Positions 29,049-47,394 of a DNA stretch of 64,000 bases are shown one piece after another. This stretch comes from Escherichia coli (GTDB taxonomy: Bacteria > Pseudomonadota > Gammaproteobacteria > Enterobacterales > Enterobacteriaceae), in NCBI RefSeq assembly GCF_001677475.2, contig NZ_CP015229.1, one strand, 5' to 3'. The notes beneath the pieces are model-generated. The model saw only the letters and a program-made list of their open reading frames with translations, was not told the origin of the DNA and did not search any database. Positions within the stretch are counted from its first letter, which is position 1; the number at the start of each line of letters is the position of its first letter. A program made the position numbers and the translations under genes.

Positions 29049-29510
<462 letters not shown>

Positions 29511-29533
29511 TTCGTTATTCAACGAGACGTAAA

Positions 29534-29570
29534 AACGCCGACCACTGGTCGGCGTTTTGCTTTCTATTTT
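29534..29570. terminator. Bidirectional rho-independent terminator (rplI / yjfZ)
   Basis: AACGCCGACC-actg-GGTCGGCGTT flanked by A-run on the left and T-rich tract on the right. Confidence 0.65.
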
Positions 29571-29580
29571 TCGTCAGGTA

Positions 29581-30375
29581 TTAGTTTCGCAAGTAGATCC
29601 ATTCACCATTCTCTTGTGTCCATAATTCAGGATGGTTTGCTGGCGTTAGATGCATACGATCACTCCTTATGTCTCGGTCCTGCGGCACTCGCTCGAAACC
29701 CAAACCCGAGTAGATTGCTGCTGAACTTGATAAGGAACGCAGACCAATTTTCAAATCATGGGGTAAATCAGAATACGCGTTTAGCAATGCAGCAATGATG
29801 AATCCGAGGGCATTAGAAACGCCTGTAACAGTGCGAAGTTGGTCGATATAAAGATCGATTGTTGGTAGTTCAGATGACCAGCAATTAGGCATTTGGGCAG
29901 GAAGGGTTACAACGTATCCTATCGTTTGGCCGGTATAGTCTGGAGTACCATAACCTGGACCCAAAACAACCTCGTGTATTGTGTATTTACTGTTGGGTTC
30001 GAAGGATTCGACATCTTGCAATAAATATTTCAGTTCTGCGGTTAACCTCGCACCCGCGTAAGCTTTATTGTATTTCTGGGCGTGAATATTATCTAATGTA
30101 GCTTCATGGTTCCATCCAAAAGAATTATCACCATTCATTGTTATTCCATCGTAAGCATTACACCTCGTCGCTAACTTATTGAATGCTTGCCAGCCTGAGA
30201 GATCTAGTTTGTGGATCTCAACAGTATGTCTGCCATCGCAATTATGGTCTCTTCCACGATTTGAAAGTAATGTAGCGCGTGCGTATTGATGAAATTTTAA
30301 TTTTACTGGTTTGTCGGTGGACGAAAAACGGGGTGAATATGCAGGAAATGAATAAATAGTGGTTGGTAATGTCAT
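29581..30375 (-). CDS. yjfZ: uncharacterized protein YjfZ
   Basis: 264-aa ORF convergent with rplI, matching K-12 position and length from memory; no motif recognised. Confidence 0.6.
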   Translation of the reverse strand: MTLPTTIYSFPAYSPRFSSTDKPVKLKFHQYARATLLSNRGRDHNCDGRHTVEIHKLDLSGWQAFNKLATRCNAYDGITMNGDNSFGWNHEATLDNIHAQKYNKAYAGARLTAELKYLLQDVESFEPNSKYTIHEVVLGPGYGTPDYTGQTIGYVVTLPAQMPNCWSSELPTIDLYIDQLRTVTGVSNALGFIIAALLNAYSDLPHDLKIGLRSLSSSAAIYSGLGFERVPQDRDIRSDRMHLTPANHPELWTQENGEWIYLRN

Positions 30376-30645
30376 TGTATCGTTGCCTGTTTAATGTTTT
30401 TATAAATATCTCAGCTGAATGTTTACAGAATAAAGAATCGATATTAATAAAAATAAGTTTGTTTTCTGAAGTAGTGAAAATAGCGGATGGTGAAAGATAT
30501 TAATATCAAAAATCGCTCATTGTGGATATAACGATGCAGCAGGGAGGGGGGATATGATTGACAACGCGTTGGTAAGCGAGGTTCGATAACTCAAGCTTCT
30601 TTAAAAACGCCATAACCTCAATTATAGCGTTTTTATTTAAAATAA

Positions 30646-31923
30646 TTAGTGGGTAGCTAACTGTACTTGTGGTTCTTCATCTTTAACTTTGATAAGCGTC
30701 CACAACGCAATAGCACCAATAATGTCAAAGAAAGCCAGGGCAATAAAGAACGGCGCGAAGCCGATAATGTGAACGAATGCCCCGATGAACAGGTTGAAAA
30801 TCAACTGACCGCTCCACGCACAGGCTCCTGCCATACCCACTGCGGTAGCTACTTCGTCCTTTTTGAACAGATCGCCACCCAGAGTTGCTGCTACAGTAGA
30901 AAGACATTGATGCGAGAACGCGCCAATACTAATCAGTAATACGGCAATGTAGGGATTTTCGACAATACTCACCAGACCAATCGTCATCATAATGACGGCT
31001 GCAATAGTGAAGGTAATTCTTCGTGAGTTAATTAAACTCACGCCGCGATCGTGGAAGAACTTCGCGACAAAACCACTGGCTAAACAGCCGAGATCGCCCA
31101 GCAGGAAAGGCAGCCAGACGAACATGGCAATTTCTTTCAGGCTAAAATGCAGCGTTTCGACGAAGAAAATCGGCACCCAGAAGTTAATGGTTCCCCATGC
31201 CGGGTCTGCGAGAAAACGCGCGATGCCAATCCCCCAGAAATTACGTTGGCTGAGGATATGCTTGATTGACGTTTTTTCTTTCTTATCTGTTTTAAGATGC
31301 TGTTCTTGCCCTGATTCAATATAGTGGCGCTCTTCATCAGAAAGGCGTTTGGCATCTTTCGGATCTTTATAACAAAAGAACCAAAATAAAGCCGCGAGCA
31401 AAGCAAGGCTACCTGAAACAATAAACGCAAATTGCCAGCTATGAAACATAATGCACCAGGCAATCAACGGTGGAGCAAGCATCGCGCCGAGTGAGGTGCC
31501 CATATTGAAAACACCTGTCGCCACGCCACGCTCTTTTGCCGGAAACCATGTTGATGCGGTTTTTACACCTGCCGGAATTGCCGACGCTTCGCTGAAACCC
31601 ATCAGGGCGCGCATAAATGCCAGACCTGACCATGTTCCGGTTAGTGCATGGCCCATTGTCGCCAGGCCCCAAATTGCGGCACATATCGCAAAACTTAACT
31701 TCAGACCTACGGTATCAATAAAGAAGCCCATTACCGGTTGCCCTAATGTATAGGCCAACTGGAATGCACTGACAATCCATGAATATTGTTCTTTGGTTAT
31801 TCCGGTTGTCTCCATAATCGTTGGAGCCGCAATACCTAACGCCGTTCTGTCCAGATAATTGATTACAGTGATAAAGCATACGAGGGCAATCATATGCCAT
31901 CGATAATTCTTTATTTTATTCAT
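30646..31923 (-). CDS. MFS transporter, anion:cation symporter (ACS) type (hexuronate/galactonate/tartrate-permease-like)
   Basis: 425 aa, about 12 hydrophobic segments, N-terminal INYLDRTALGIAAP motif; AAGG SD 7 nt upstream. Confidence 0.75.
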   Translation of the reverse strand: MNKIKNYRWHMIALVCFITVINYLDRTALGIAAPTIMETTGITKEQYSWIVSAFQLAYTLGQPVMGFFIDTVGLKLSFAICAAIWGLATMGHALTGTWSGLAFMRALMGFSEASAIPAGVKTASTWFPAKERGVATGVFNMGTSLGAMLAPPLIAWCIMFHSWQFAFIVSGSLALLAALFWFFCYKDPKDAKRLSDEERHYIESGQEQHLKTDKKEKTSIKHILSQRNFWGIGIARFLADPAWGTINFWVPIFFVETLHFSLKEIAMFVWLPFLLGDLGCLASGFVAKFFHDRGVSLINSRRITFTIAAVIMMTIGLVSIVENPYIAVLLISIGAFSHQCLSTVAATLGGDLFKKDEVATAVGMAGACAWSGQLIFNLFIGAFVHIIGFAPFFIALAFFDIIGAIALWTLIKVKDEEPQVQLATH

Positions 31924-32015
31924 TTTTAAACCTTTTAATTATATTAATAAACCCTGGTTGTTGGTATTTCCATGTAATAGGCAATAAAAATCAGGTACAG
32001 AGAAAATATTGAAAA

Positions 32016-34088
32016 TTATTGTGTGTAAATGTCTCCCTTTAAAAAGTCTGGCCAGTTTTTTTCAAAGTAAATACCGTTAATACACGGTTGCATACGTAAA
32101 GACTTTACTTCGGTAATAAAAGAACCTTGCGAATATTGAATTGTTAATTTGTGATTTTTATCTTCAGCGAGTTCAGAGCGAAAACGCCATTCTTCTTTTA
32201 CGCCGCGACGAGTTTGTGGTAGGCATTTGCCTTGTGGATCAATAACCATCCGCGCCCCACGACTGCCGCCACCAGCATCAATATAATGCGTTAATTGTGT
32301 TAATACCGCGGCAGAAGTCAGCGCCATATGCCGCCACATAAACAGCTCGGAAACTTCACCCACATGTTTGATTGCCAATCCATGCCGTTGGACAAATTCG
32401 TTCAATAGCAGGGCATCGCGAGTGGCGCGTCGGACTTTATCGGCATGGCAAATAAATCCCGCATAGTCAGACATTCGTGCCTGAATTTTTTCTCTCACAA
32501 CCGACAACGGCATCCCGGTCCCGTTATCGTGCGCCTGAGTAATGATCTCTCTTATAGAAGCCAGTGCCGGAGCTGCCAGCTGTGCTATATCTCCATCAAT
32601 ATTCCGCTTTTGCGTGCAACCAATAAAACGTGCCAGACGCACGGCAAAAACCTGCCCGGCATTCAATGCCGCACCACCAGGGCGAGTGACGCCGTGTGTG
32701 CCAGCAACTTCCCCCACTGCAAAACAACCGGGCAGAGATGTTTGTCCCCAGATATCCACTTCAATGCCGCCATTCATATGCTGATTATTCATGGCAAACT
32801 GCAATGGCTGCGTGGTGAGATCGTAACCGTGCATCTTATACAGCGAGATAGACAGCGGATTCATTCGTTGCAGTCGTTCGATGGGCGATGGCGCCAGGGC
32901 GTCGTTATTTTCCAGATACGCGCGAACGTCGTCGTCCAGTCGTTCTAATGAGAATGGCAGGTCACCCGGCACAGGTTCAGGATTGCGATTGAAATCCATA
33001 AATACCTGACGCCCTGATTGCTGCTCTTGCGCCACCGCCATATCTAACAAGCTGGAGCCAAAATCCATTACCCGCGTGGCGTGGAACGGCCACTGATAGC
33101 CTTTACGGAAGATGTTTGAAGCCAGCTCCTGGGTGGTGCGATAGTAATCTGCGAGGAAGTTATACTCGTTGCCCTCGGCATCCACGGAATAGATATATGG
33201 GATCACTTGTACATAGGTGCCGGACAAATTCCACGGAAACGTGCTGCGCGGCGTGCCTATACCAAACTGGCTTTCGGTCAGATTAGTTAGTGTCAGGCCT
33301 TCCTCCAGCGCCAGCCCCAGCGAGCCAAAACATTTGTGTGGGTACACACTGTCGCGATAAAGCTCGCCCGGCCCGCCTGTTGCCAGTACCACATTGGGCG
33401 CAGTCACAATTGCCAGCCCCCACGGGTTATGGGCGCGGGAACCGGTTGCGAGGATAGCCCCGGCCACACGATCTTCGCCGTTTTCACCGCGTTGATGCAG
33501 CAGTTTAATCACCGTTGCACTGGTCAACAGTGGGATGGCGAGGCGCTGCACTTCTTCGAGCAATACTTTCACCATCAGACGAGAAGTGCGCGGCCCACAG
33601 GAGGTTGCGCGTCCGGCTTCGTCATGGTCGGTCTGATAACGGAGAATTGCACCATAGCGATCTTCCGGTAATTCCAGACCGAGATATTGCAGCCCGCCAA
33701 GGGTATGTAGGGAACCGACCGCTTCGACATACGCCGTGTCGTGATCCATCGCACCGCCGCTCGCCAGTGCTTCAGCAAGTTTTGCGAAGTTATCGCCGTT
33801 GCCCGCCGTTGCGGCGGTAAACAGCGTCTGTTTATCGGAACCGGAGCAGGCCGATGTTCCCATGTATAACCCGGCGGTGGCGATTAGCACATTTTGCTGG
33901 CGACGTTTCAGTTCAACCGCCGCACGTAATCCTGCCGCGCCGCTACCAACGACCAGAGCATCTGTTTGCCAGAGCGGGTAATCAACACCGTCCACCGTGA
34001 CAATTGACGTTGGCTCTGCTGACACAAAACCCTTCGGGAAAGTGACGTGCGTCAGCGCATCGAGGATGGCGTCATCAGTCTGGCTCAT
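32016..34088 (-). CDS. FAD-dependent oxidoreductase, fumarate-reductase/succinate-dehydrogenase flavoprotein-like, with extra C-terminal region
   Basis: 690 aa; N-terminal dinucleotide fold VVGSGAAGLRAAVEL; start overlaps upstream gene stop (ATGA). Confidence 0.7.
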   Translation of the reverse strand: MSQTDDAILDALTHVTFPKGFVSAEPTSIVTVDGVDYPLWQTDALVVGSGAAGLRAAVELKRRQQNVLIATAGLYMGTSACSGSDKQTLFTAATAGNGDNFAKLAEALASGGAMDHDTAYVEAVGSLHTLGGLQYLGLELPEDRYGAILRYQTDHDEAGRATSCGPRTSRLMVKVLLEEVQRLAIPLLTSATVIKLLHQRGENGEDRVAGAILATGSRAHNPWGLAIVTAPNVVLATGGPGELYRDSVYPHKCFGSLGLALEEGLTLTNLTESQFGIGTPRSTFPWNLSGTYVQVIPYIYSVDAEGNEYNFLADYYRTTQELASNIFRKGYQWPFHATRVMDFGSSLLDMAVAQEQQSGRQVFMDFNRNPEPVPGDLPFSLERLDDDVRAYLENNDALAPSPIERLQRMNPLSISLYKMHGYDLTTQPLQFAMNNQHMNGGIEVDIWGQTSLPGCFAVGEVAGTHGVTRPGGAALNAGQVFAVRLARFIGCTQKRNIDGDIAQLAAPALASIREIITQAHDNGTGMPLSVVREKIQARMSDYAGFICHADKVRRATRDALLLNEFVQRHGLAIKHVGEVSELFMWRHMALTSAAVLTQLTHYIDAGGGSRGARMVIDPQGKCLPQTRRGVKEEWRFRSELAEDKNHKLTIQYSQGSFITEVKSLRMQPCINGIYFEKNWPDFLKGDIYTQ

Positions 34089-35626
34089 GCGTCCTCCATT
34101 GGCGTAAACAGGCTACTTTCCATCAGGCGCGGCTGGTTGATAATTGGACGGAAAGCCATGAACGGCAGAATGTCGCGGTCAATCTCCACGCCCGGCGCGA
34201 TTTCAATTAATTCAACGCCTTCTGCCGTTAACTGAAACACCGCGCGTTCAGTGATATACAACACTTCCTGACCGCTGTGCTGTGCGTAGGCGGCGCTAAA
34301 AGTGATTTTTTCCACCTGAGTAACCAGTTTAGGGATTTGACCTGACTGGGCGATATGCAAGCCATCTGGCGTTACATCAATCTTGCTGCCTTTGGCGTCG
34401 AACGTGCCGCAGAACACCACCTTACGGGCGTTTTGCGCAATTTCGAGAAATCCGCCGGGGCCAATCAGATTGCCATTGAGATGGGAGACGTTGACGTTAC
34501 CGTACTGATCCATCTCTCCCATGCCGAGGAAGGTGATATCGATCCCTCCGCCACTGTAGAACTCAAATTGATCGAGTGATGGAATAATGGCATCGGCGTT
34601 GCGGGCGCAGCCGAAAAACGCATCATCCAGCATCATACCGTTATGCACGCCTTGCTCGACGCTCAGCCATAAACTTTGGTAAGGCACGCCTTCGCGCAGC
34701 GCTACTCCTGGAATGCCGCCGGGAATACCAAAGCCAAAGTTGGTTGAAGCGCCAGCTACCAGTTCGCGTGCTGCCCGACGGGCAATCAGGCGACGTACCG
34801 GATGACTAACCAGTTCAATAGCGTCGTTAGAACTCAGACGGCGATGTTGGCCGCTGATGGTCAGGTCGTAACCGCCAAGATAGGTTTGTGGCTGTTCGCG
34901 GTGTTCAACGATGCCATCAACCAGAATGCCCGGTAATTTGACTCGGCGTGGTTCAATCGCGCCAGCTTCCAGCACATCGCGTACCTGTACAAACACTTTG
35001 CCGCCGCTGTTGTGTGCTGCCAGCGCCATGGAATAGCTATCCATATCAATCGCTTCTTCTTCAAGGCTGACGTTGCCCCGAGGATCGGCATAAGTGCCAC
35101 GCAAAATCGCGTAATCGACTTTGAAAGGGCGATAACGAAGTTTGGTTTCACCGTCGATTTCAATCAGTTCTACCAGGTCGTCGGTAGTGCATTCATTCGA
35201 CTTACCGCCGCCATTGCGTGGATCAACAAACGATCCCAGCCCAACGTGGGTAAAAAGCCCCGGACGTCCGGCGCCGATCTCCCGTAGCAGTGCCTGAATC
35301 ACGCCACCAGGAAAACAATAGGCTTCAATCGCGTTATTTTTTACCAGCGCCTGCATTTTGGGTGACCAGGTAAAGTGTCCGGCAATAATGCGTTTGAGCA
35401 TTTCAGCATGAGCGAAGCGGTTCGTGCCTTTGCAGTCGCGATCGCCAATGCCCAGCGAGTGGATTAATGTCAGATCGCGCGGGTGTCCGGTTTGCAGGAA
35501 GCGCGCTTCAATGGCTGCCAGAATATGGTCGGCTTCCACCATGCCGCCGCCGTTACCGCTAATGGCAATGGTTGCGCCATCCTGAATTTGCGCCGCCAGT
35601 GCCTCGGCGGTTGTTATCTTACGCAT
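34085..35626 (-). CDS. CoA-transferase, family I-like (YdiF/propionate-CoA-transferase-like)
   Basis: 513 aa; overall resemblance to two-domain family I CoA-transferases; assignment by eye, needs HMM confirmation. Confidence 0.6.
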   Translation of the reverse strand: MRKITTAEALAAQIQDGATIAISGNGGGMVEADHILAAIEARFLQTGHPRDLTLIHSLGIGDRDCKGTNRFAHAEMLKRIIAGHFTWSPKMQALVKNNAIEAYCFPGGVIQALLREIGAGRPGLFTHVGLGSFVDPRNGGGKSNECTTDDLVELIEIDGETKLRYRPFKVDYAILRGTYADPRGNVSLEEEAIDMDSYSMALAAHNSGGKVFVQVRDVLEAGAIEPRRVKLPGILVDGIVEHREQPQTYLGGYDLTISGQHRRLSSNDAIELVSHPVRRLIARRAARELVAGASTNFGFGIPGGIPGVALREGVPYQSLWLSVEQGVHNGMMLDDAFFGCARNADAIIPSLDQFEFYSGGGIDITFLGMGEMDQYGNVNVSHLNGNLIGPGGFLEIAQNARKVVFCGTFDAKGSKIDVTPDGLHIAQSGQIPKLVTQVEKITFSAAYAQHSGQEVLYITERAVFQLTAEGVELIEIAPGVEIDRDILPFMAFRPIINQPRLMESSLFTPMEDA

Positions 35627-35635
35627 ACAATTTCC

Positions 35636-36412
35636 TTAGTGATTATGGAAGCTCACGCTACTTTTTTCGGCAAATGCCTGCGTCGCCTGCTGGCAATCCT
35701 GAGTGGCGGACATTAATCCAGCCAGTAACTGGTGTGGGTATTCAGCGTGTTTATTTTCCAGTGCCAGAATCAGCTGCTTAATATGCGCCAGTGCCACCGG
35801 ACCACATTTTTCCAGCTGCGCTAACTGGTTCGCCATCCAGCTTTCCACCTGTTCTTTTTCTACTACTTCATCAATTAAATTCGCCGCCTGGGCTTCATGC
35901 GCCGTCAGACGTTTACCTAGCATCAGCATCTGGCGACCGACCACTGGGCCGACCTGATTAATCACGCGTTCAATGCCCATCCAGCCAGGCACCATGCCGA
36001 GCATGACTTCCGGGTTAGAAAATTTCGCGCTGGGGCGAGCGATTCGAATATCGCAGCACAAGGCAAGTTCAATACCGCCGCCGATGGTATGACCGTTGAG
36101 ATTCGCAACCGTTAATTGCGGTAAATTGCGCAGGCGATTAAAAACGTCATTGCCGCGTTTAATCCATTTTCTGCCCATATCTAATGGCGAATAGGCCGAC
36201 CACGATTTAATATCACCGCCCGCACAAAAGAATTTATCGCCGATTGCCGTTAATTCGACTAATCGTAATGTGGTGTCGTTTTCAATTTCATTTAAATAAT
36301 GGTCGAGAGATTCAATCATCTCTTCGTTAATAGCATGACATTTCTCTTCACGGTTCAACGTCAGGCGGCAGGAAGCCGCCGCTCTGCTGAACAGAACGGG
36401 TTGGTCACTCAT
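35636..36412 (-). CDS. enoyl-CoA hydratase/isomerase (crotonase fold)
   Basis: 258 aa; crotonase signatures FCAGGDIKSW and GGGIELALCCD, plus PE motif (SNPEVMLGMVPG). Confidence 0.8.
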   Translation of the reverse strand: MSDQPVLFSRAAASCRLTLNREEKCHAINEEMIESLDHYLNEIENDTTLRLVELTAIGDKFFCAGGDIKSWSAYSPLDMGRKWIKRGNDVFNRLRNLPQLTVANLNGHTIGGGIELALCCDIRIARPSAKFSNPEVMLGMVPGWMGIERVINQVGPVVGRQMLMLGKRLTAHEAQAANLIDEVVEKEQVESWMANQLAQLEKCGPVALAHIKQLILALENKHAEYPHQLLAGLMSATQDCQQATQAFAEKSSVSFHNH

Positions 36413-36421
36413 GATTATTCC

Positions 36422-37264
36422 TTAGCAATAATTCGCGATGCGATCGACGCTAATATCCAGCGTGTTGTTAATATCTTTCTGCCACCAGTACGGTGAGAAT
36501 ATTTCCAGTTCAATAGCGCCATTAAATCCGGCGTTTTCAACCAGTCGACGAATTGACGGAATATTTATCACGCCATCTCCCGGCATTCCCCGGTCATTGA
36601 CCAGATCGGTGGTCGGCACTAACCAGTCGGAAACATGAAACGCGAGAATACGTTTTCCGGCGCGCAGGAGCTGGCTGGCCAGATCCGGATCCCACCAGAC
36701 ATGGTAAACATCCACAGCCACGCCGAGGCCAAATTCGCCATCGGGATCGAGTTCATCACACCAGTCCAGCGCCTGGCGTAACGTGCACAGGCAAGAGCGA
36801 TCGGCGGCGGTCATTGGGTGCAGTGGCTCCAGCGCAATCGGCACGCCAACGTCTTTCGAATGTGGCAGTAACTGGCGTATCCCTTGTTTCACCTGTTCCC
36901 GTGCTTCATACAGATCTTTTGTGCCCTGCGGTAACCCGCCAACCACCTGCATATAACAGGCGGCGTTCAGCACCGCTGCGTCGTCCAGCGCCCGGCGGTT
37001 ATCATCAATTGCCAGTTTGCGTTCCGCCAGCGTCGGCGCGGTGTAGTAGGTGCTACGGCATAAACCGGAAACGCGCATGTTATTGACGGCAAGCTGGCGG
37101 GCGATCTGCTGAAGATCTTCACCCTGCAACTCTCTGCGCCAGGGGGCGATCGCACCGATACCGCGTGCGGCACAGGCATCAATAATGGCGGGTAGCGGCG
37201 TTTTATAGCCCAGTGTTGCGGTATTGATACTGAATAAATCCGGGCGTTGTAACAGATCTCTCAT
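36422..37264 (-). CDS. xylose-isomerase-like TIM-barrel protein (sugar phosphate isomerase/epimerase or dehydratase family)
   Basis: 280 aa; resemblance to AP-endonuclease-2/xylose-isomerase-like TIM barrels by eye; needs HMM confirmation. Confidence 0.55.
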   Translation of the reverse strand: MRDLLQRPDLFSINTATLGYKTPLPAIIDACAARGIGAIAPWRRELQGEDLQQIARQLAVNNMRVSGLCRSTYYTAPTLAERKLAIDDNRRALDDAAVLNAACYMQVVGGLPQGTKDLYEAREQVKQGIRQLLPHSKDVGVPIALEPLHPMTAADRSCLCTLRQALDWCDELDPDGEFGLGVAVDVYHVWWDPDLASQLLRAGKRILAFHVSDWLVPTTDLVNDRGMPGDGVINIPSIRRLVENAGFNGAIELEIFSPYWWQKDINNTLDISVDRIANYC

Positions 37265-37273
37265 GATTCAGCC

Positions 37274-38065
37274 TCAGAAGCGCGGCATACTTAAGCCGCC
37301 GTCGATGGCGACCGCCTGACCACAGGTGTAAATCAGTTTACCTTCCGCCATCGCGCGGACGGTGGAGGCAATATCAGCCGGATAACCCCAACGTCCCCAC
37401 GGCACCAGACCTTTGGCAATCAGTTCGTCGTAATAAGCCGTTGCTGGAATAGTCATATCGGTTTTGATGAGACCAGGGCGCACTTCATAGACGCCAATTT
37501 GTTCGTTGCAAAGGCGAGCAGCAAACAGACGAGCAGCGGCAGAAACGGCGGTTTTGGCAATTGTGTATTCGCCGCGATTCATCGCCAGCATGATGGCGTT
37601 GATGGAACTGACAAAAATAATTGAGCGGTGCGGGAATTCTGTTTCTGGTTTTGGCTGTGCGAGCAGACGTTTACTGAATGCCTGTGCAAGGAAGAACGGT
37701 GCGCGGGTGTTAATGGCAATATTTTGGTCGAAGCTGTCTGGTTCCAGGTCGAGAAGGTCACCGCGTTTTTTCACTGAAATGCCTGCGTTGTTGAGCAGGC
37801 AGTCCAGACGTCCCCACTGGTTTTGCGCTGCGTCGAGCATCTCTTCATGCAGGGAGAGATCGCCAACATCGGCAGGGAAGCAAATCACTTCCACGCCTTC
37901 CGCCAGACATTCTTGTTGTGTGACATGTAATTTTTCAACGCTATCGGCATCCGGACGATCATTAATCAGCAGATTAAATCCGCCACGCGCAAGCTCCAGC
38001 GCACAGCCCTTTCCAATACCACGAGCGGCTCCGGTAATCACGGCAACAGGACGAGTGGATTTCAT
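37274..38065 (-). CDS. short-chain dehydrogenase/reductase (SDR)
   Basis: 263 aa; TGAARGIGKG cofactor motif, NNAG, catalytic Ser and YxxxK (YTIAK). Confidence 0.85.
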   Translation of the reverse strand: MKSTRPVAVITGAARGIGKGCALELARGGFNLLINDRPDADSVEKLHVTQQECLAEGVEVICFPADVGDLSLHEEMLDAAQNQWGRLDCLLNNAGISVKKRGDLLDLEPDSFDQNIAINTRAPFFLAQAFSKRLLAQPKPETEFPHRSIIFVSSINAIMLAMNRGEYTIAKTAVSAAARLFAARLCNEQIGVYEVRPGLIKTDMTIPATAYYDELIAKGLVPWGRWGYPADIASTVRAMAEGKLIYTCGQAVAIDGGLSMPRF

Positions 38066-38133
38066 ACAATAGCTCTCTTTTTTTGAATTTTGTTTCCTTA
38101 GTGATGATTAGCTTGCGACTGGAGGATAAAAAG

Positions 38134-38155
38134 ATCAACCATCTAGTTGGTTGAT
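38134..38155. promoter_or_regulatory. candidate TetR-family operator (perfect 8-6-8 palindrome)
   Basis: ATCAACCA-tctagt-TGGTTGAT in the 212-bp divergent intergenic region between the SDR operon and the TetR gene. Confidence 0.45.
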
Positions 38156-38277
38156 ATGCGATGACGATCACAGGACATTTGATAACCTGATGAAAGTACA
38201 AGTTTTTGCCCTTTTTTCTGAAGCTGAAATCAAATCAGGTTATGATAGTCACCACGAAGAGGTCGTGGGGAAGCGTT

Positions 38278-38925
38278 ATGTATATTGATACCAGCAACGT
38301 ACAGAGCCTGAAGGAAAAGCTGCTGTTATGCGCGGTTAATGAATTTGCCGAATATGGTTATGAAGGGGCCAGGGTCGATAATATTGTTAAGTCTGCGGGG
38401 TGTAGTAAACAGACGGTTTATCACCACTTTGGTAATAAAGAAAATTTATTTATTGAAGTACTGGAATATACCTGGAACGATATTCGAAAAAAAGAAAAGG
38501 CCCTTGATTTCTCAGATCTTCCGCCACAAAAAGCCATTGAGAAAATTATTGATTTTACATGGGATTATTATATTGCTAATCCCTGGTTTTTAAAAATTGT
38601 GCATAGTGAAAATCAAAGTAAAGGTGTGCATTATGCAAAATCACAGCGTCTCTTAGAAATTAACCATGCGCACTTGCAGTTAATGGAATCCTTATTGGAG
38701 GAAGGGAAGAAACACAATATTTTTAAGCCAGATATCGACCCATTGCAGGTGAATATTAATATTGCTGCGCTTGGGGGATATTATTTGATCAACCAGCATA
38801 CGCTTGGCCTGGTTTATCACATCAGTATGGTTTCACCCCAGGCACTGGAAGCCAGACGTAAGGTCATCAAAGAGACGCTCCTTAGCTGGCTTTTGGTTGA
38901 CCCCTCATCTACCGCGCACGAATAA
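38278..38925 (+). CDS. TetR/AcrR-family transcriptional regulator
   Basis: 215 aa from ATG 38278 (GGGGAAG SD upstream); N-terminal [31 protein letters not shown]; track ORF is N-extended. Confidence 0.8.
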
Positions 38926-45450: not shown

Positions 45451-47394
45451 TTACTTACTCAAATCCACCTGATAAATCGCAAACCCGATATCATCGGTCG
45501 CGACTTTATTCATCGGATATTGCCCTTTCTCTTTAATAAACGCTGCGGCTTTATCTGATGGAGAGGTTTCGAAACGGATATCCAGTTTCTTATCGCCAGC
45601 AATCGGTGCTAAACGCCAGTTGTTATCTGCCGCCGGGTGAATTTCCCCCGCACGTTTCGACTCATCAGCAATCCACGCTGCCAGCACCGAGCGGTTCTCA
45701 TCCGGTGAAGCAAAAGCGATATGGCTGTCGCCCGTACCAGCAAATTTGCCGCCGTAAGCGCGATAGTTATTGGTGGCAACGAGGAACATGGCGTTCGGAT
45801 CAATGGGTTTACCGTTAAAGGTCAGGTTCTTAATCCGCTCTGCATTGGCATTAACCACCTGACATTCACCGTCATAACGGGCGGGTTGGGTAACATCAAT
45901 CTGATAATTCACACCATCAATAACATCAAAGTTATAAGTGCGGAAACCATCCCAGTTGATGAGTGACTGTGGTTTCGTGCTGTTAGGATCAATCTGGTTA
46001 AACTGTCCGGCGGAGCACTCCAGCCACTCTTTCACCTCTTTACCGCTGGCTTTCACCACAATCAGCGTATTGGGGTAGAGATAAAGATCGGCGGCATTAC
46101 GGAAGGTCAACTGGCCTTTTTCCACCTCCACATAGCTTGCCGGGTCATTTTTGCGACCACCAACTTTAAACGGTGCGGCAGCTGAAAGCACCGGCAGTTT
46201 TGCCAGATCCGGATCGCCCTGAATGTAATGTTCGACATACGCTTTTTGCGCGTTGTTCACGACTTGCACGGTCGGATCGTCCTGCACCAGCGCCAGATAG
46301 CTATACATATTGTCGGCAGATTTACCGATTGGCTTGCTGACAAACTGGCGTGTGGCATCGTGATCGGCTTTGAGTGTTTCTACCAGCTTGCTATCTTCCG
46401 CCGCGAGGGATTTTTTATTAGCGATGTCGTAAATCGGCCGTGCTTCCGCTTTCGCCTGCATCACCTGCCATTTACCGCTGTCATTACTGAGTTACAAGTC
46501 GACCACACCAAGATGATCGCCCCACATGCCCGGCATTACCGCCGGAACACCATTCAGCGTGCCTTTCGCGATATCAGCCCCTTCGATATCAGCAAAATCT
46601 TTACCTGGGAAAACGGCGTGAGCATGGCCAAACATAATGGCGTTAACGCCCGGAATTTCACTGAGGTAATAAACTGAGTTTTCCGCCATCACTTTATACG
46701 GATCGGCAGACAGCCCGGAATGCGCCAGAACGACAACGAGATCGGCACCTTTCTCACGCATTTCAGGCACGTATTTGCGCACAGTTTCTGTTATATCGTT
46801 AACGGTGACTTTGCCGGACAAATTGGCTTTATCCCACCCCATAATCTGCGGCGGCACCACGCCAATATAGCCAATCTTTAACGTCTGTTTTTTTCCGTCT
46901 TTATCGACCACTTCGGTGTCTTTAATTAAATACGGTGTAAACATGGGCTGTTTGGTTTTTGCGTCGATGACGTTGGCATTTACATAAGGGAATTTCGCTC
47001 CCGCCAGCGCATTTTTCAGGTAATCCAGACCGTAGTTAAACTCGTGGTTGCCAAGCGTGCCGACGGTATAGTCCAGCGTATTTAATGCCTTATAGACCGG
47101 GTGAATATCGCCTGCTTTTAAACCTTTCGCCGACATGTAATCTGCCAGCGGACTCCCCTGAATCAAATCGCCGTTATCGACCAGTACGCTGTTTTTCACT
47201 TCATTGCGGGCATCGTTAATCAGGCTTGCGGTACGTACCAGTCCGAATTTTTCCGTAGCGGTGTCTTTGTAATAATCGAAATCCATCATGTTGCTATGCA
47301 GATCAGTGGTTTCCATGATACGCAGATCGACCGTCGCTGCATTTACACTGGCGGCAATCAGCGTGGCCAGGAGCGTTGCGCTAAACTTAATCAT
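45451..47394 (-). pseudogene. cpdB: 2',3'-cyclic-nucleotide 2'-phosphodiesterase/3'-nucleotidase, interrupted by one in-frame TAA
   Basis: Track ORFs 46492..47403 and 45451..46464 are in the same frame; together 647 codons with one TAA at 46492-46494 (..[17 protein letters not shown]..). Confidence 0.8.

Follow-up and report, generated by a model that had tools for sequence, protein, structure and literature searches.

The Escherichia coli chromosome segment analyzed here (64,000 nucleotides of contig NZ_CP015229.1, assembly GCF_001677475.2; in the following called the window) extends from amiB to ytfR, according to annotation transferred from strain ChlosBP-23-1. Between rplI and ytfB it carries seven minus-strand genes, from yjfZ through a short-chain dehydrogenase/reductase (SDR) gene, and a divergent TetR-family gene (Pfam). 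One end of this gene group is AT-rich and contains the gene of a major facilitator superfamily (MFS) transporter together with the 3′ end of the gene of an FAD-dependent oxidoreductase, the flavoprotein. We think it likely that transporters are exchanged in this tract, the end of an operon that was seated between rplI and ytfB before Escherichia, Klebsiella and Salmonella split. The feature itself is an ordinary recombinational cassette polymorphism at a conserved slot, and a well resolved one.

The finding rests on a junction inside the flavoprotein gene (32016-34088, minus strand; 690 amino acids, Pfam FAD_binding_2). When the MFS-type locus was aligned with loci that have a tripartite ATP-independent periplasmic (TRAP) transporter instead, the nucleotide sequences were about 55% identical up to about 32,250 and at least 97% identical from about 32,275; the proteins were identical in pattern until the motif GGGSRGAR (amino acids 606-613) and about 49% identical beyond it. 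This homology break (about 32,250-32,275) coincides with a shift in GC content. As predicted originally, the 3′ end of the gene is AT-rich relative to the enzyme genes: past the motif, the last 234 nucleotides have a GC content of 36.8% and a GC content at third codon positions (GC3) of 28.6%, versus 54.8 and 55.5% in the body of the gene, and the 3′ 385 nucleotides have 42.6% GC versus 55.1% in the remainder. The GC3 difference of the terminal 78 codons is −0.259; 1,912 windows of the same size in other long genes never fell below −0.205. From its best match, strain ChlosBP-23-1, the window differs little between about 28,000 and about 32,200 (99.3-99.9% identity) and much more in the enzyme block (92-95% identity), the change lying at about 32,290. 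GC shift, homology break and a recombination breakpoint in the strain's own history thus coincide at 32,250-32,290, the interval over which identity between MFS-type and TRAP-type loci jumps. To its left lies the tail of the flavoprotein gene (32016..32249, minus strand; the last 77 codons and the stop codon), delimited by alignments, composition and the AlphaFold model, and to its right the shared enzyme block (32250..38065, minus strand; Pfam, composition and synteny), which includes the flavoprotein body.

The two sides also differ in how widely they are shared. The exact MFS protein of the window was found on more than 1,000 contigs of the protein collection, the exact flavoprotein on 41. 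Between any two of the five E. coli strains compared the enzyme block is 92-96% identical, and that of the window (32259-38065) is at most 94.1% identical to that of any of 3,115 carrier genomes. The genes flanking the locus are far less diverged, being mostly 96-100% identical.

The original prediction, which had been made from the composition of the window, held that the MFS gene and the 3′ end of the flavoprotein gene (30646-32400) are more AT-rich than the genes from SDR to CoA-transferase. The observation was confirmed, with corrected limits. From just past the rplI terminator to about 32,260 the DNA has 42.4% GC, versus 53.5% in the enzyme block (32259-38065) and 51.2% in the window; this tract comprises yjfZ, a spacer of 270 bp, the MFS gene, a gap of 92 bp and the final 77 flavoprotein codons. 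Its sole open reading frames (ORFs) are yjfZ and the MFS gene. Recursive binary segmentation of the GC content gave no breakpoint near the locus, because a single split gains little from a nested low-GC island; therefore a two-breakpoint scan statistic was used. It delimited an AT-rich interval at 29481-32200 (42.1% GC) with a log-likelihood ratio (LLR) of 46.9, the maximum in 20 block shuffles being 31.0, and only 0.5% of windows of equal length are as AT-rich as the tract. The interval 30646-32400 has 44.6% GC; its right edge has to be moved to about 32,200-32,260, since 32259-32400 has 48.6% GC. On the left the tract runs through yjfZ (29581-30375, minus strand; DUF2686, Pfam), which has 42.4% GC and, with 36.0%, the lowest GC3 in the window. 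This gene had been taken for a core neighbor; it belongs to the variable tract and is found in under half of 5,426 genomes. The spacer between yjfZ and the MFS gene (30376..30645), which holds the terminator of the MFS gene and the yjfZ upstream region, is indeed very AT-rich: with 32.6% GC it ranks third, and the gap between the flavoprotein and MFS genes (31924..32015; 25% GC), which is part of the cassette, second among 30 spacers (median 43.4%).

For the MFS gene (30646..31923, minus strand; 425 amino acids, ACS/hexuronate-transporter-like, Pfam MFS_1) the outcome was mixed. Its GC3 is below that of the pooled enzyme block (0.480 versus 0.552; z = −2.7, p = 0.007), but taken alone the gene is a mild outlier. 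Among 50 flanking genes (GC 51.8 ± 4.0, GC3 56.5 ± 7.0), 5 are lower in GC (46.6%, z = −1.3) and 7 are lower in GC3 (48.0%, z = −1.2), and its codon adaptation index (CAI) of 0.39, calculated with 30 K-12 ribosomal and translation genes as reference, is no different from those of the enzyme genes (0.38-0.49). A check of GC content and codon usage against neighboring genes is thus nearly failed by the MFS gene alone, whereas the shift within the flavoprotein gene is strong. From these values, and from a GC content at first codon positions of 49%, which is low, as it is for further membrane proteins (for ulaA, 49%), one could argue that there are no modules and that the composition follows from the amino acids needed in a membrane protein and from the low expression of a gene at the far end of an operon. 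We hold this to be most improbable and in fact refuted by the comparative data: synonymous-site GC is low too, 48% versus 63-71% in the window's four other membrane-protein genes; the shift lies inside the gene of a soluble enzyme, exactly at the homology break; and alternative cassettes exist.

These alternatives were counted in 5,426 complete E. coli genomes. The enzyme block is present in about 3,115 of them. At its end 1,670 genomes have the MFS gene of the window (MFS-A), 1,446 have a TRAP transporter (dctP-dctM-dctQ) in its stead, and two have a second MFS gene (MFS-B) and a MaoC dehydratase gene and are without the enoyl-CoA hydratase (ECH) gene; the three counts total 3,118, matching the number of enzyme-block carriers. 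In 1,381 genomes the identity of the TRAP cassette is 99% or higher. yjfZ was found in 2,523 genomes, a count of yjfZ DNA giving 2,538, and combined with MFS-A, as in the window, in about 289. Strain cq9 has the TRAP type at the same site, TRAP-type strains have nothing in the yjfZ slot, and the B2 strain 536 has a hipBA-like pair in place of yjfZ, together with the MFS gene. On the left side, homology to TRAP-type and B2-type loci stops at 29563 (BLAST), right past the intrinsic terminator of rplI (29532..29558, plus strand; terminator scan), which forms the left edge of the variable slot. In the B2-type locus of strain 536 homology resumes at 30602, the base of the hairpin of the predicted operon terminator (30602..30635, minus strand). 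The latter, a 15-bp hairpin followed by a U-run directly past the MFS stop codon (RNA fold −15.6 kcal/mol, z = −4.3), is also the inverted repeat I4. From these end-points the tract would consist of two independently variable pieces: a yjfZ cassette (29564..30601, minus strand; yjfZ and its upstream region, delimited by BLAST end-points and Pfam) and the MFS-A cassette (30602 to about 32258), which contains the terminator, the MFS gene, the 92-bp gap and the last 77 flavoprotein codons. In other strains the place of the latter is taken by a hexuronate-type TRAP transporter (dctQMP) or by the second MFS gene with the MaoC dehydratase gene, each with its own flavoprotein tail.

The MFS-B/MaoC architecture was seen in loci L006 and L008 of E. 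coli and L101 of Salmonella, with the MaoC gene after an MFS gene 76% identical to that of the window. The MaoC-type dehydratase is an apparent non-orthologous replacement of the crotonase-type ECH. In these loci the CoA-transferase allele is AT-rich too (46% GC, GC3 38%). Two insertions in the region may be recorded here: some E. coli genomes have an ISEcp1-blaCTX-M-15 unit inside the matched stretch of the locus, and strain AW1.7 has an IS1 inside the yjfZ/MFS stretch.

Strain K-12 carries a decayed deletion form of the locus (L013 3088-3596). Its yjfZ is followed by the yjfZ-proximal 169 bp of the spacer (window 30376-30544; the K-12-type deletion starts past 30544), then by an SDR remnant of about 100 nucleotides, 78% identical to the SDR gene (window 37875-37976), and then by ytfA, which equals the 3′ 402 nucleotides of the TetR gene. 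In 2024 yjfZ was proposed as a qPCR marker that is conserved in, and specific to, E. coli/Shigella; in that study about 3 logs fewer yjfZ copies were obtained from one test strain (PMC11057252). The counts given above mean that yjfZ is not universal in E. coli, despite its proposed use as a universal qPCR marker.

By look-ups of exact proteins in Klebsiella and Salmonella, the locus was found at the same chromosomal position (rplI ... ytfB-fklB-cycA) in Klebsiella oxytoca, in a further Klebsiella species and in Salmonella enterica. The K. oxytoca locus has a third type of MFS gene, 50% identical to that of the window; the Klebsiella species locus has a TRAP transporter whose DctM is 94% identical to E. 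coli DctM; and the S. enterica loci have either the K. oxytoca-type MFS gene or the MFS-B/MaoC type. MFS-A itself also occurs at this site in E. albertii, E. marmotae and a Klebsiella-like genome (89% amino acid identity). The identity matrices sort the body of the flavoprotein by genus, with 92-97% identity inside Escherichia and 80-84% to Klebsiella and Salmonella; its tail, like the transporter, is sorted according to the type of cassette. Tails of the MFS-A type share 88-91% identity among E. coli, E. albertii and E. marmotae; within E. coli the TRAP type shares 97% of the body and 49% of the tail with the window, and the Klebsiella-like P0079 shares 95% of the body and 42% of the tail with P0032. 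The prediction that the type of tail tells the type of transporter was tried on four further loci and held in three. TRAP genes lie downstream of the gene of a Klebsiella-like protein whose tail is of the TRAP type; another protein, whose body is 95% identical but whose tail differs, goes with an MFS-A-type transporter, 89% identical to that of the window; and a Salmonella protein with a K. oxytoca-like tail goes with a K. oxytoca-type MFS. The fourth, Salmonella P0025, gave no call.

The original prediction had suggested modules of different ancestry. In the sense of separate genealogies this is borne out by the alternative cassettes, the homology break and the different grouping of body and tail, but a recent foreign import of the tract is not. 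When like was compared with like between genera, the cassette genes were about 70-82% identical in nucleotides (dctQ lowest, 69.6%) and the enzyme genes 75-84%; at third positions the values were 45-56 and 46-63%. The cassettes have thus diverged between genera as the enzyme genes have, which indicates that they are old and that a recent import is not the source of their AT-richness; it supports the view that they are alternative haplotypes of probably considerable age.

A recent horizontal import from a low-GC donor, Providencia- or Orbaceae-like, whose DNA has not yet drifted to E. coli composition, would explain that the tract is AT-rich, as is typical of acquired DNA in E. coli. It would also agree with the relatives of the MFS protein, the closest of which outside Escherichia (80-85% amino acid identity) include those of Providencia (gene GC 40%) and Gilliamella (37%), E. 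coli's own ExuT being 48% identical. We nevertheless regard such an import as unlikely, the divergence between genera having largely refuted it. In the two other Escherichia species and the Klebsiella-like genome mentioned above, MFS-A occupies the same site; its third-position identity between the window and the Klebsiella-like genome is about 49%, equal to that of the flavoprotein body, and its GC content is nearly equal in the two hosts (46.6% in E. coli, 46.9% in the Klebsiella-like genome). There is also no integrase, tRNA or flanking direct repeat.

In every host examined, each cassette type is AT-richer than the enzyme block, and its GC3 is 3-27 points (mostly 8-20) below that of the block. 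Within E. coli the TRAP cassette has 41-45% GC, MFS-B 40-41% and MaoC 42-43%, as compared with 49-55% in the enzyme genes of TRAP and MFS-A loci and 50-54% in those of MFS-B/MaoC loci, except for the CoA-transferase gene with 46%. The Klebsiella values are 39-49% (TRAP) and 47-52% (MFS) versus 53-59% in the enzyme genes, and in Salmonella the MFS genes have 42-48% versus 52-56% in the enzyme genes of the locus with a third MFS type, MFS-C (L100), and 47-51% in those of the MFS-B/MaoC locus (L101). Since the GC content of MFS-A is alike in two hosts although third positions are saturated with changes, the offset is probably maintained rather than a case of incomplete amelioration, and we infer that AT-richness is a persistent property of this end of the operon. 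Candidate causes are a lower rate of recombination, which would reduce GC-biased conversion, weak selection on codons so far down the operon, and H-NS binding or its constraints.

Silencing of the transporter end by H-NS was the second possibility raised with the original prediction. In a wider form, the transporter end and the TetR/promoter side would be coated by H-NS, the operon would be off, and the AT-richness would perhaps be maintained in this way. We treat this as a tentative possibility, somewhat short of an even chance, and one which is compatible with the cassette explanation and does not exclude it. The tract, with 42% GC and spacers of 25-33% GC, is as AT-rich as an H-NS-silenced region should be, and a list of H-NS sites from genomic SELEX includes the yjfZ-ytfA spacer of K-12 (Shimada et al. 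2014, PMC3946193, Table 1). That listed spacer retains window 30376-30544. However, genomic SELEX is an in-vitro method, and the spacer of K-12 arose by deletion. The high-affinity motif TCGATAAATT is not enriched in the 2.7-kb tract: its 4 near-matches, versus about 3.6 expected from the window-wide rate, are at background. Five near-matches to TCGATAAATT, with two mismatches each, cluster within 210 bp at 38342-38552, in the 5′ region of the TetR gene. The case resembles the known xenogeneic silencing of AT-rich DNA by H-NS (Navarre et al. 2006, as cited in PMC3946193) in its AT-rich tract with very AT-rich spacers and in the homologous K-12 spacer listed as H-NS-bound in vitro; it differs in that the DNA here is not recently foreign.

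How an exchange at the transporter end of the operon would proceed can be proposed from the alignments. The cassettes would be swapped by homologous recombination, with one crossover in or beyond the rplI terminator region and the other within the flavoprotein body, with the GGGSRGAR-encoding block as its downstream limit. Because the tail is diverged and the transporter genes are non-homologous, recombination between haplotypes would reach this block but not pass it. Strong conservation of the protein ends with GGGSRGAR, and the sequence past it is the least conserved in all homologues. In the AlphaFold model of the flavoprotein (pLDDT 87, pTM 0.91), residues 614-690 form a separate beta-rich C-terminal subdomain after a long helix and the loop with the motif; according to this model the splice point lies at a domain boundary inside an enzyme gene. 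The weakly constrained subdomain would be too diverged to recombine, and a chimera joined at the domain boundary should be structurally tolerated. In this way recombination would keep the enzyme block similar within a genus, while the cassettes would keep their separate, old genealogies.

Several observations weigh against this explanation. The genealogical argument comes from identity matrices of about 13 proteins and a dozen loci. As conservation is lowest in the tail in all homologues, the contrast between body and tail reflects in part weak constraint rather than history. The coupling of tail and transporter is imperfect, the tail of the Salmonella MFS-B/MaoC locus (P0025) being unlike any other: Salmonella and E. 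coli MFS-B-type tails do not match (39-42% identity), and the E. coli TRAP-type tail resembles Klebsiella TRAP-type tails weakly (55%). The MFS gene alone is no significant compositional outlier and does not differ in CAI. Finally, the divergent control region (38066-38277; 38.7% GC) and the TetR-family regulator gene (38278-38925, plus strand; Pfam; 39.8% GC) form a second AT-rich tract. The TetR gene, equally AT-rich, is co-inherited with the enzyme block in all variants; it is AT-rich without a separate ancestry, and AT-richness alone is therefore not diagnostic of separate ancestry.

We also considered that the flavoprotein subdomain formed by amino acids 614-690 might be functionally matched to the type of transporter, for example by docking or by substrate tuning. 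Tail and transporter would then be a selected unit, maintained as a long-lived polymorphism in Escherichia, Klebsiella and Salmonella alike, and the AT-richness would come from rarer recombination between non-homologous alleles, with less GC-biased conversion. To this we give a small chance.

The transporters provide a lead to the substrate of the operon. The MFS protein (Pfam MFS_1, E = 3e-62; TIGR00893, 315 bits, under its cut-off of 395 bits) shows 85 and 83% amino acid identity to transporters of uxaC-uxuB-uxuA-gntR clusters in Providencia rettgeri and Gilliamella apis, respectively, and 48% to E. coli ExuT; it thus qualifies as an ortholog of the transporters of hexuronate (uxaC-uxuAB) clusters. 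The best PDB matches of DctP of the TRAP cassette (E = 1e-58 to 1e-72) are among TRAP binding proteins and include 4X8R, 4N8Y, 4N91, 4MHF and 4N15. Of these, 4X8R is glucuronate-bound, 4N8Y galacturonate-bound, 4N91 and 4MHF are glucuronate or galacturonate binders, and 4N15 was the template for a model of the glucuronate-binding STM3169 (PMC11668362, PMC7660916). Since two non-homologous transporters point to one class of substrates, this comparison suggests, as a lead only, that a hexuronate-like sugar acid is processed by the operon. No paper on the operon or the MFS gene came up in literature searches for the locus. A known parallel is the non-orthologous displacement of transporters in sugar-acid pathways, as in hexuronate uptake in Salmonella by ExuT and STM3169-3171 (PMC7660916), where an ExuT-like MFS and a hexuronate-type TRAP system likewise occur; there, however, the two systems are co-resident, whereas here they are allelic alternatives at one end of an operon within a species.

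Upstream of the flavoprotein gene in the enzyme block follow, all on the minus strand and assigned by Pfam, the genes of a fused CoA-transferase (34085-35626; 53.9% GC), the ECH (35636-36412; 49.0% GC), a xylose-isomerase-like TIM-barrel protein resembling isomerases and epimerases (36422-37264; 55.2% GC) and the SDR (37274-38065; 52.9% GC). The exact sequences of the flavoprotein and the CoA-transferase are the NCBI E. coli proteins ANO92158.1 and ANO92159.1. The low identity of the enzyme block to that of any complete genome (at most 94.1%) had raised the suspicion that the window is not from E. coli; this was rejected in view of these exact proteins and of the 92-96% identity seen between E. 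coli strains. NCBIfam scores of the flavoprotein are far below every equivalog cut-off. With SdhA, FrdA and L-aspartate oxidase it shares the FAD_binding_2 domain and the four-domain fold. Its model matches SdhA/FrdA over the full length (Foldseek E about 1e-27, TM-score 0.6-0.78), the tail being the small C-terminal subdomain. It is, however, only 14-18% identical to SdhA/FrdA, and the operon encodes no iron-sulfur or membrane-anchor subunit (Pfam). Flavoprotein homologues are widespread in Rhodobacteraceae, Rhizobiales, Planctomycetota and Lentisphaerota (L016-L093); among the matches listed in the contig search they are mostly 37-64% identical, the weakest 36%. They often stand beside an SDR gene and sometimes beside a TIM-barrel gene, without CoA-transferase and hydratase. 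Flavoprotein and SDR, with or without the TIM-barrel protein, thus look like a conserved core.

Chromosomal hot spots with alternative gene cassettes occur in E. coli and have been described as hotspots of the pan-genome. The rplI-ytfB slot resembles them in its conserved flanks (the rplI terminator and ytfB), in its strain-specific AT-rich contents and in the K-12 deletion form. It differs in that there is no integrase, tRNA or border repeat, that one border lies inside a coding sequence, and that the slot and its cassette types are common to Klebsiella and Salmonella. A classical mobile island was considered and rejected: no tRNA was found in the window, no integrase or transposase ORF in the tract and no meaningful flanking repeat. 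The atypical composition of such an island is present (42.4 versus 51.2% GC), but recent acquisition is not, since three genera share the cassette types and their site, and third positions have diverged to saturation. What is unusual in this polymorphism is the junction inside an enzyme gene, the comparable numbers of MFS and TRAP types and the occurrence of the cassette types across three genera.

Elsewhere in the window, the most AT-rich interval lies between cysQ and ytfJ (48301-49540; 34.4% GC, LLR 71.8) and holds an ORF of 303 amino acids (48536-49447) with no Pfam match. cpdB (45451-47394, minus strand) has an in-frame stop at codon 301 of 647 and is probably a pseudogene in this strain. 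An IS21-family element at about 60680-63070, with ORFs for a transposase-like protein of 499 amino acids (60766-62265) and an IstB-like ATPase (62262-63017), splits ytfQ into the fragments 60267-60677 and 63070-63639. An apparent truncation of yjfC was rejected as a BLAST artefact, the frame being open for 387 codons.

With these results a compositional impression has become a mapped cassette boundary. The locus is a clean example that AT-richness need not imply recent import and that a splice point can, as modeled here, fall at a domain boundary within an enzyme gene. Among complete E. coli genomes about 57% have the operon, as yet uncharacterized; its transporter is either an ExuT-like MFS protein or a TRAP system of the hexuronate type, and these alternatives provide a testable lead on its class of substrates, which may be hexuronate-like sugar acids.

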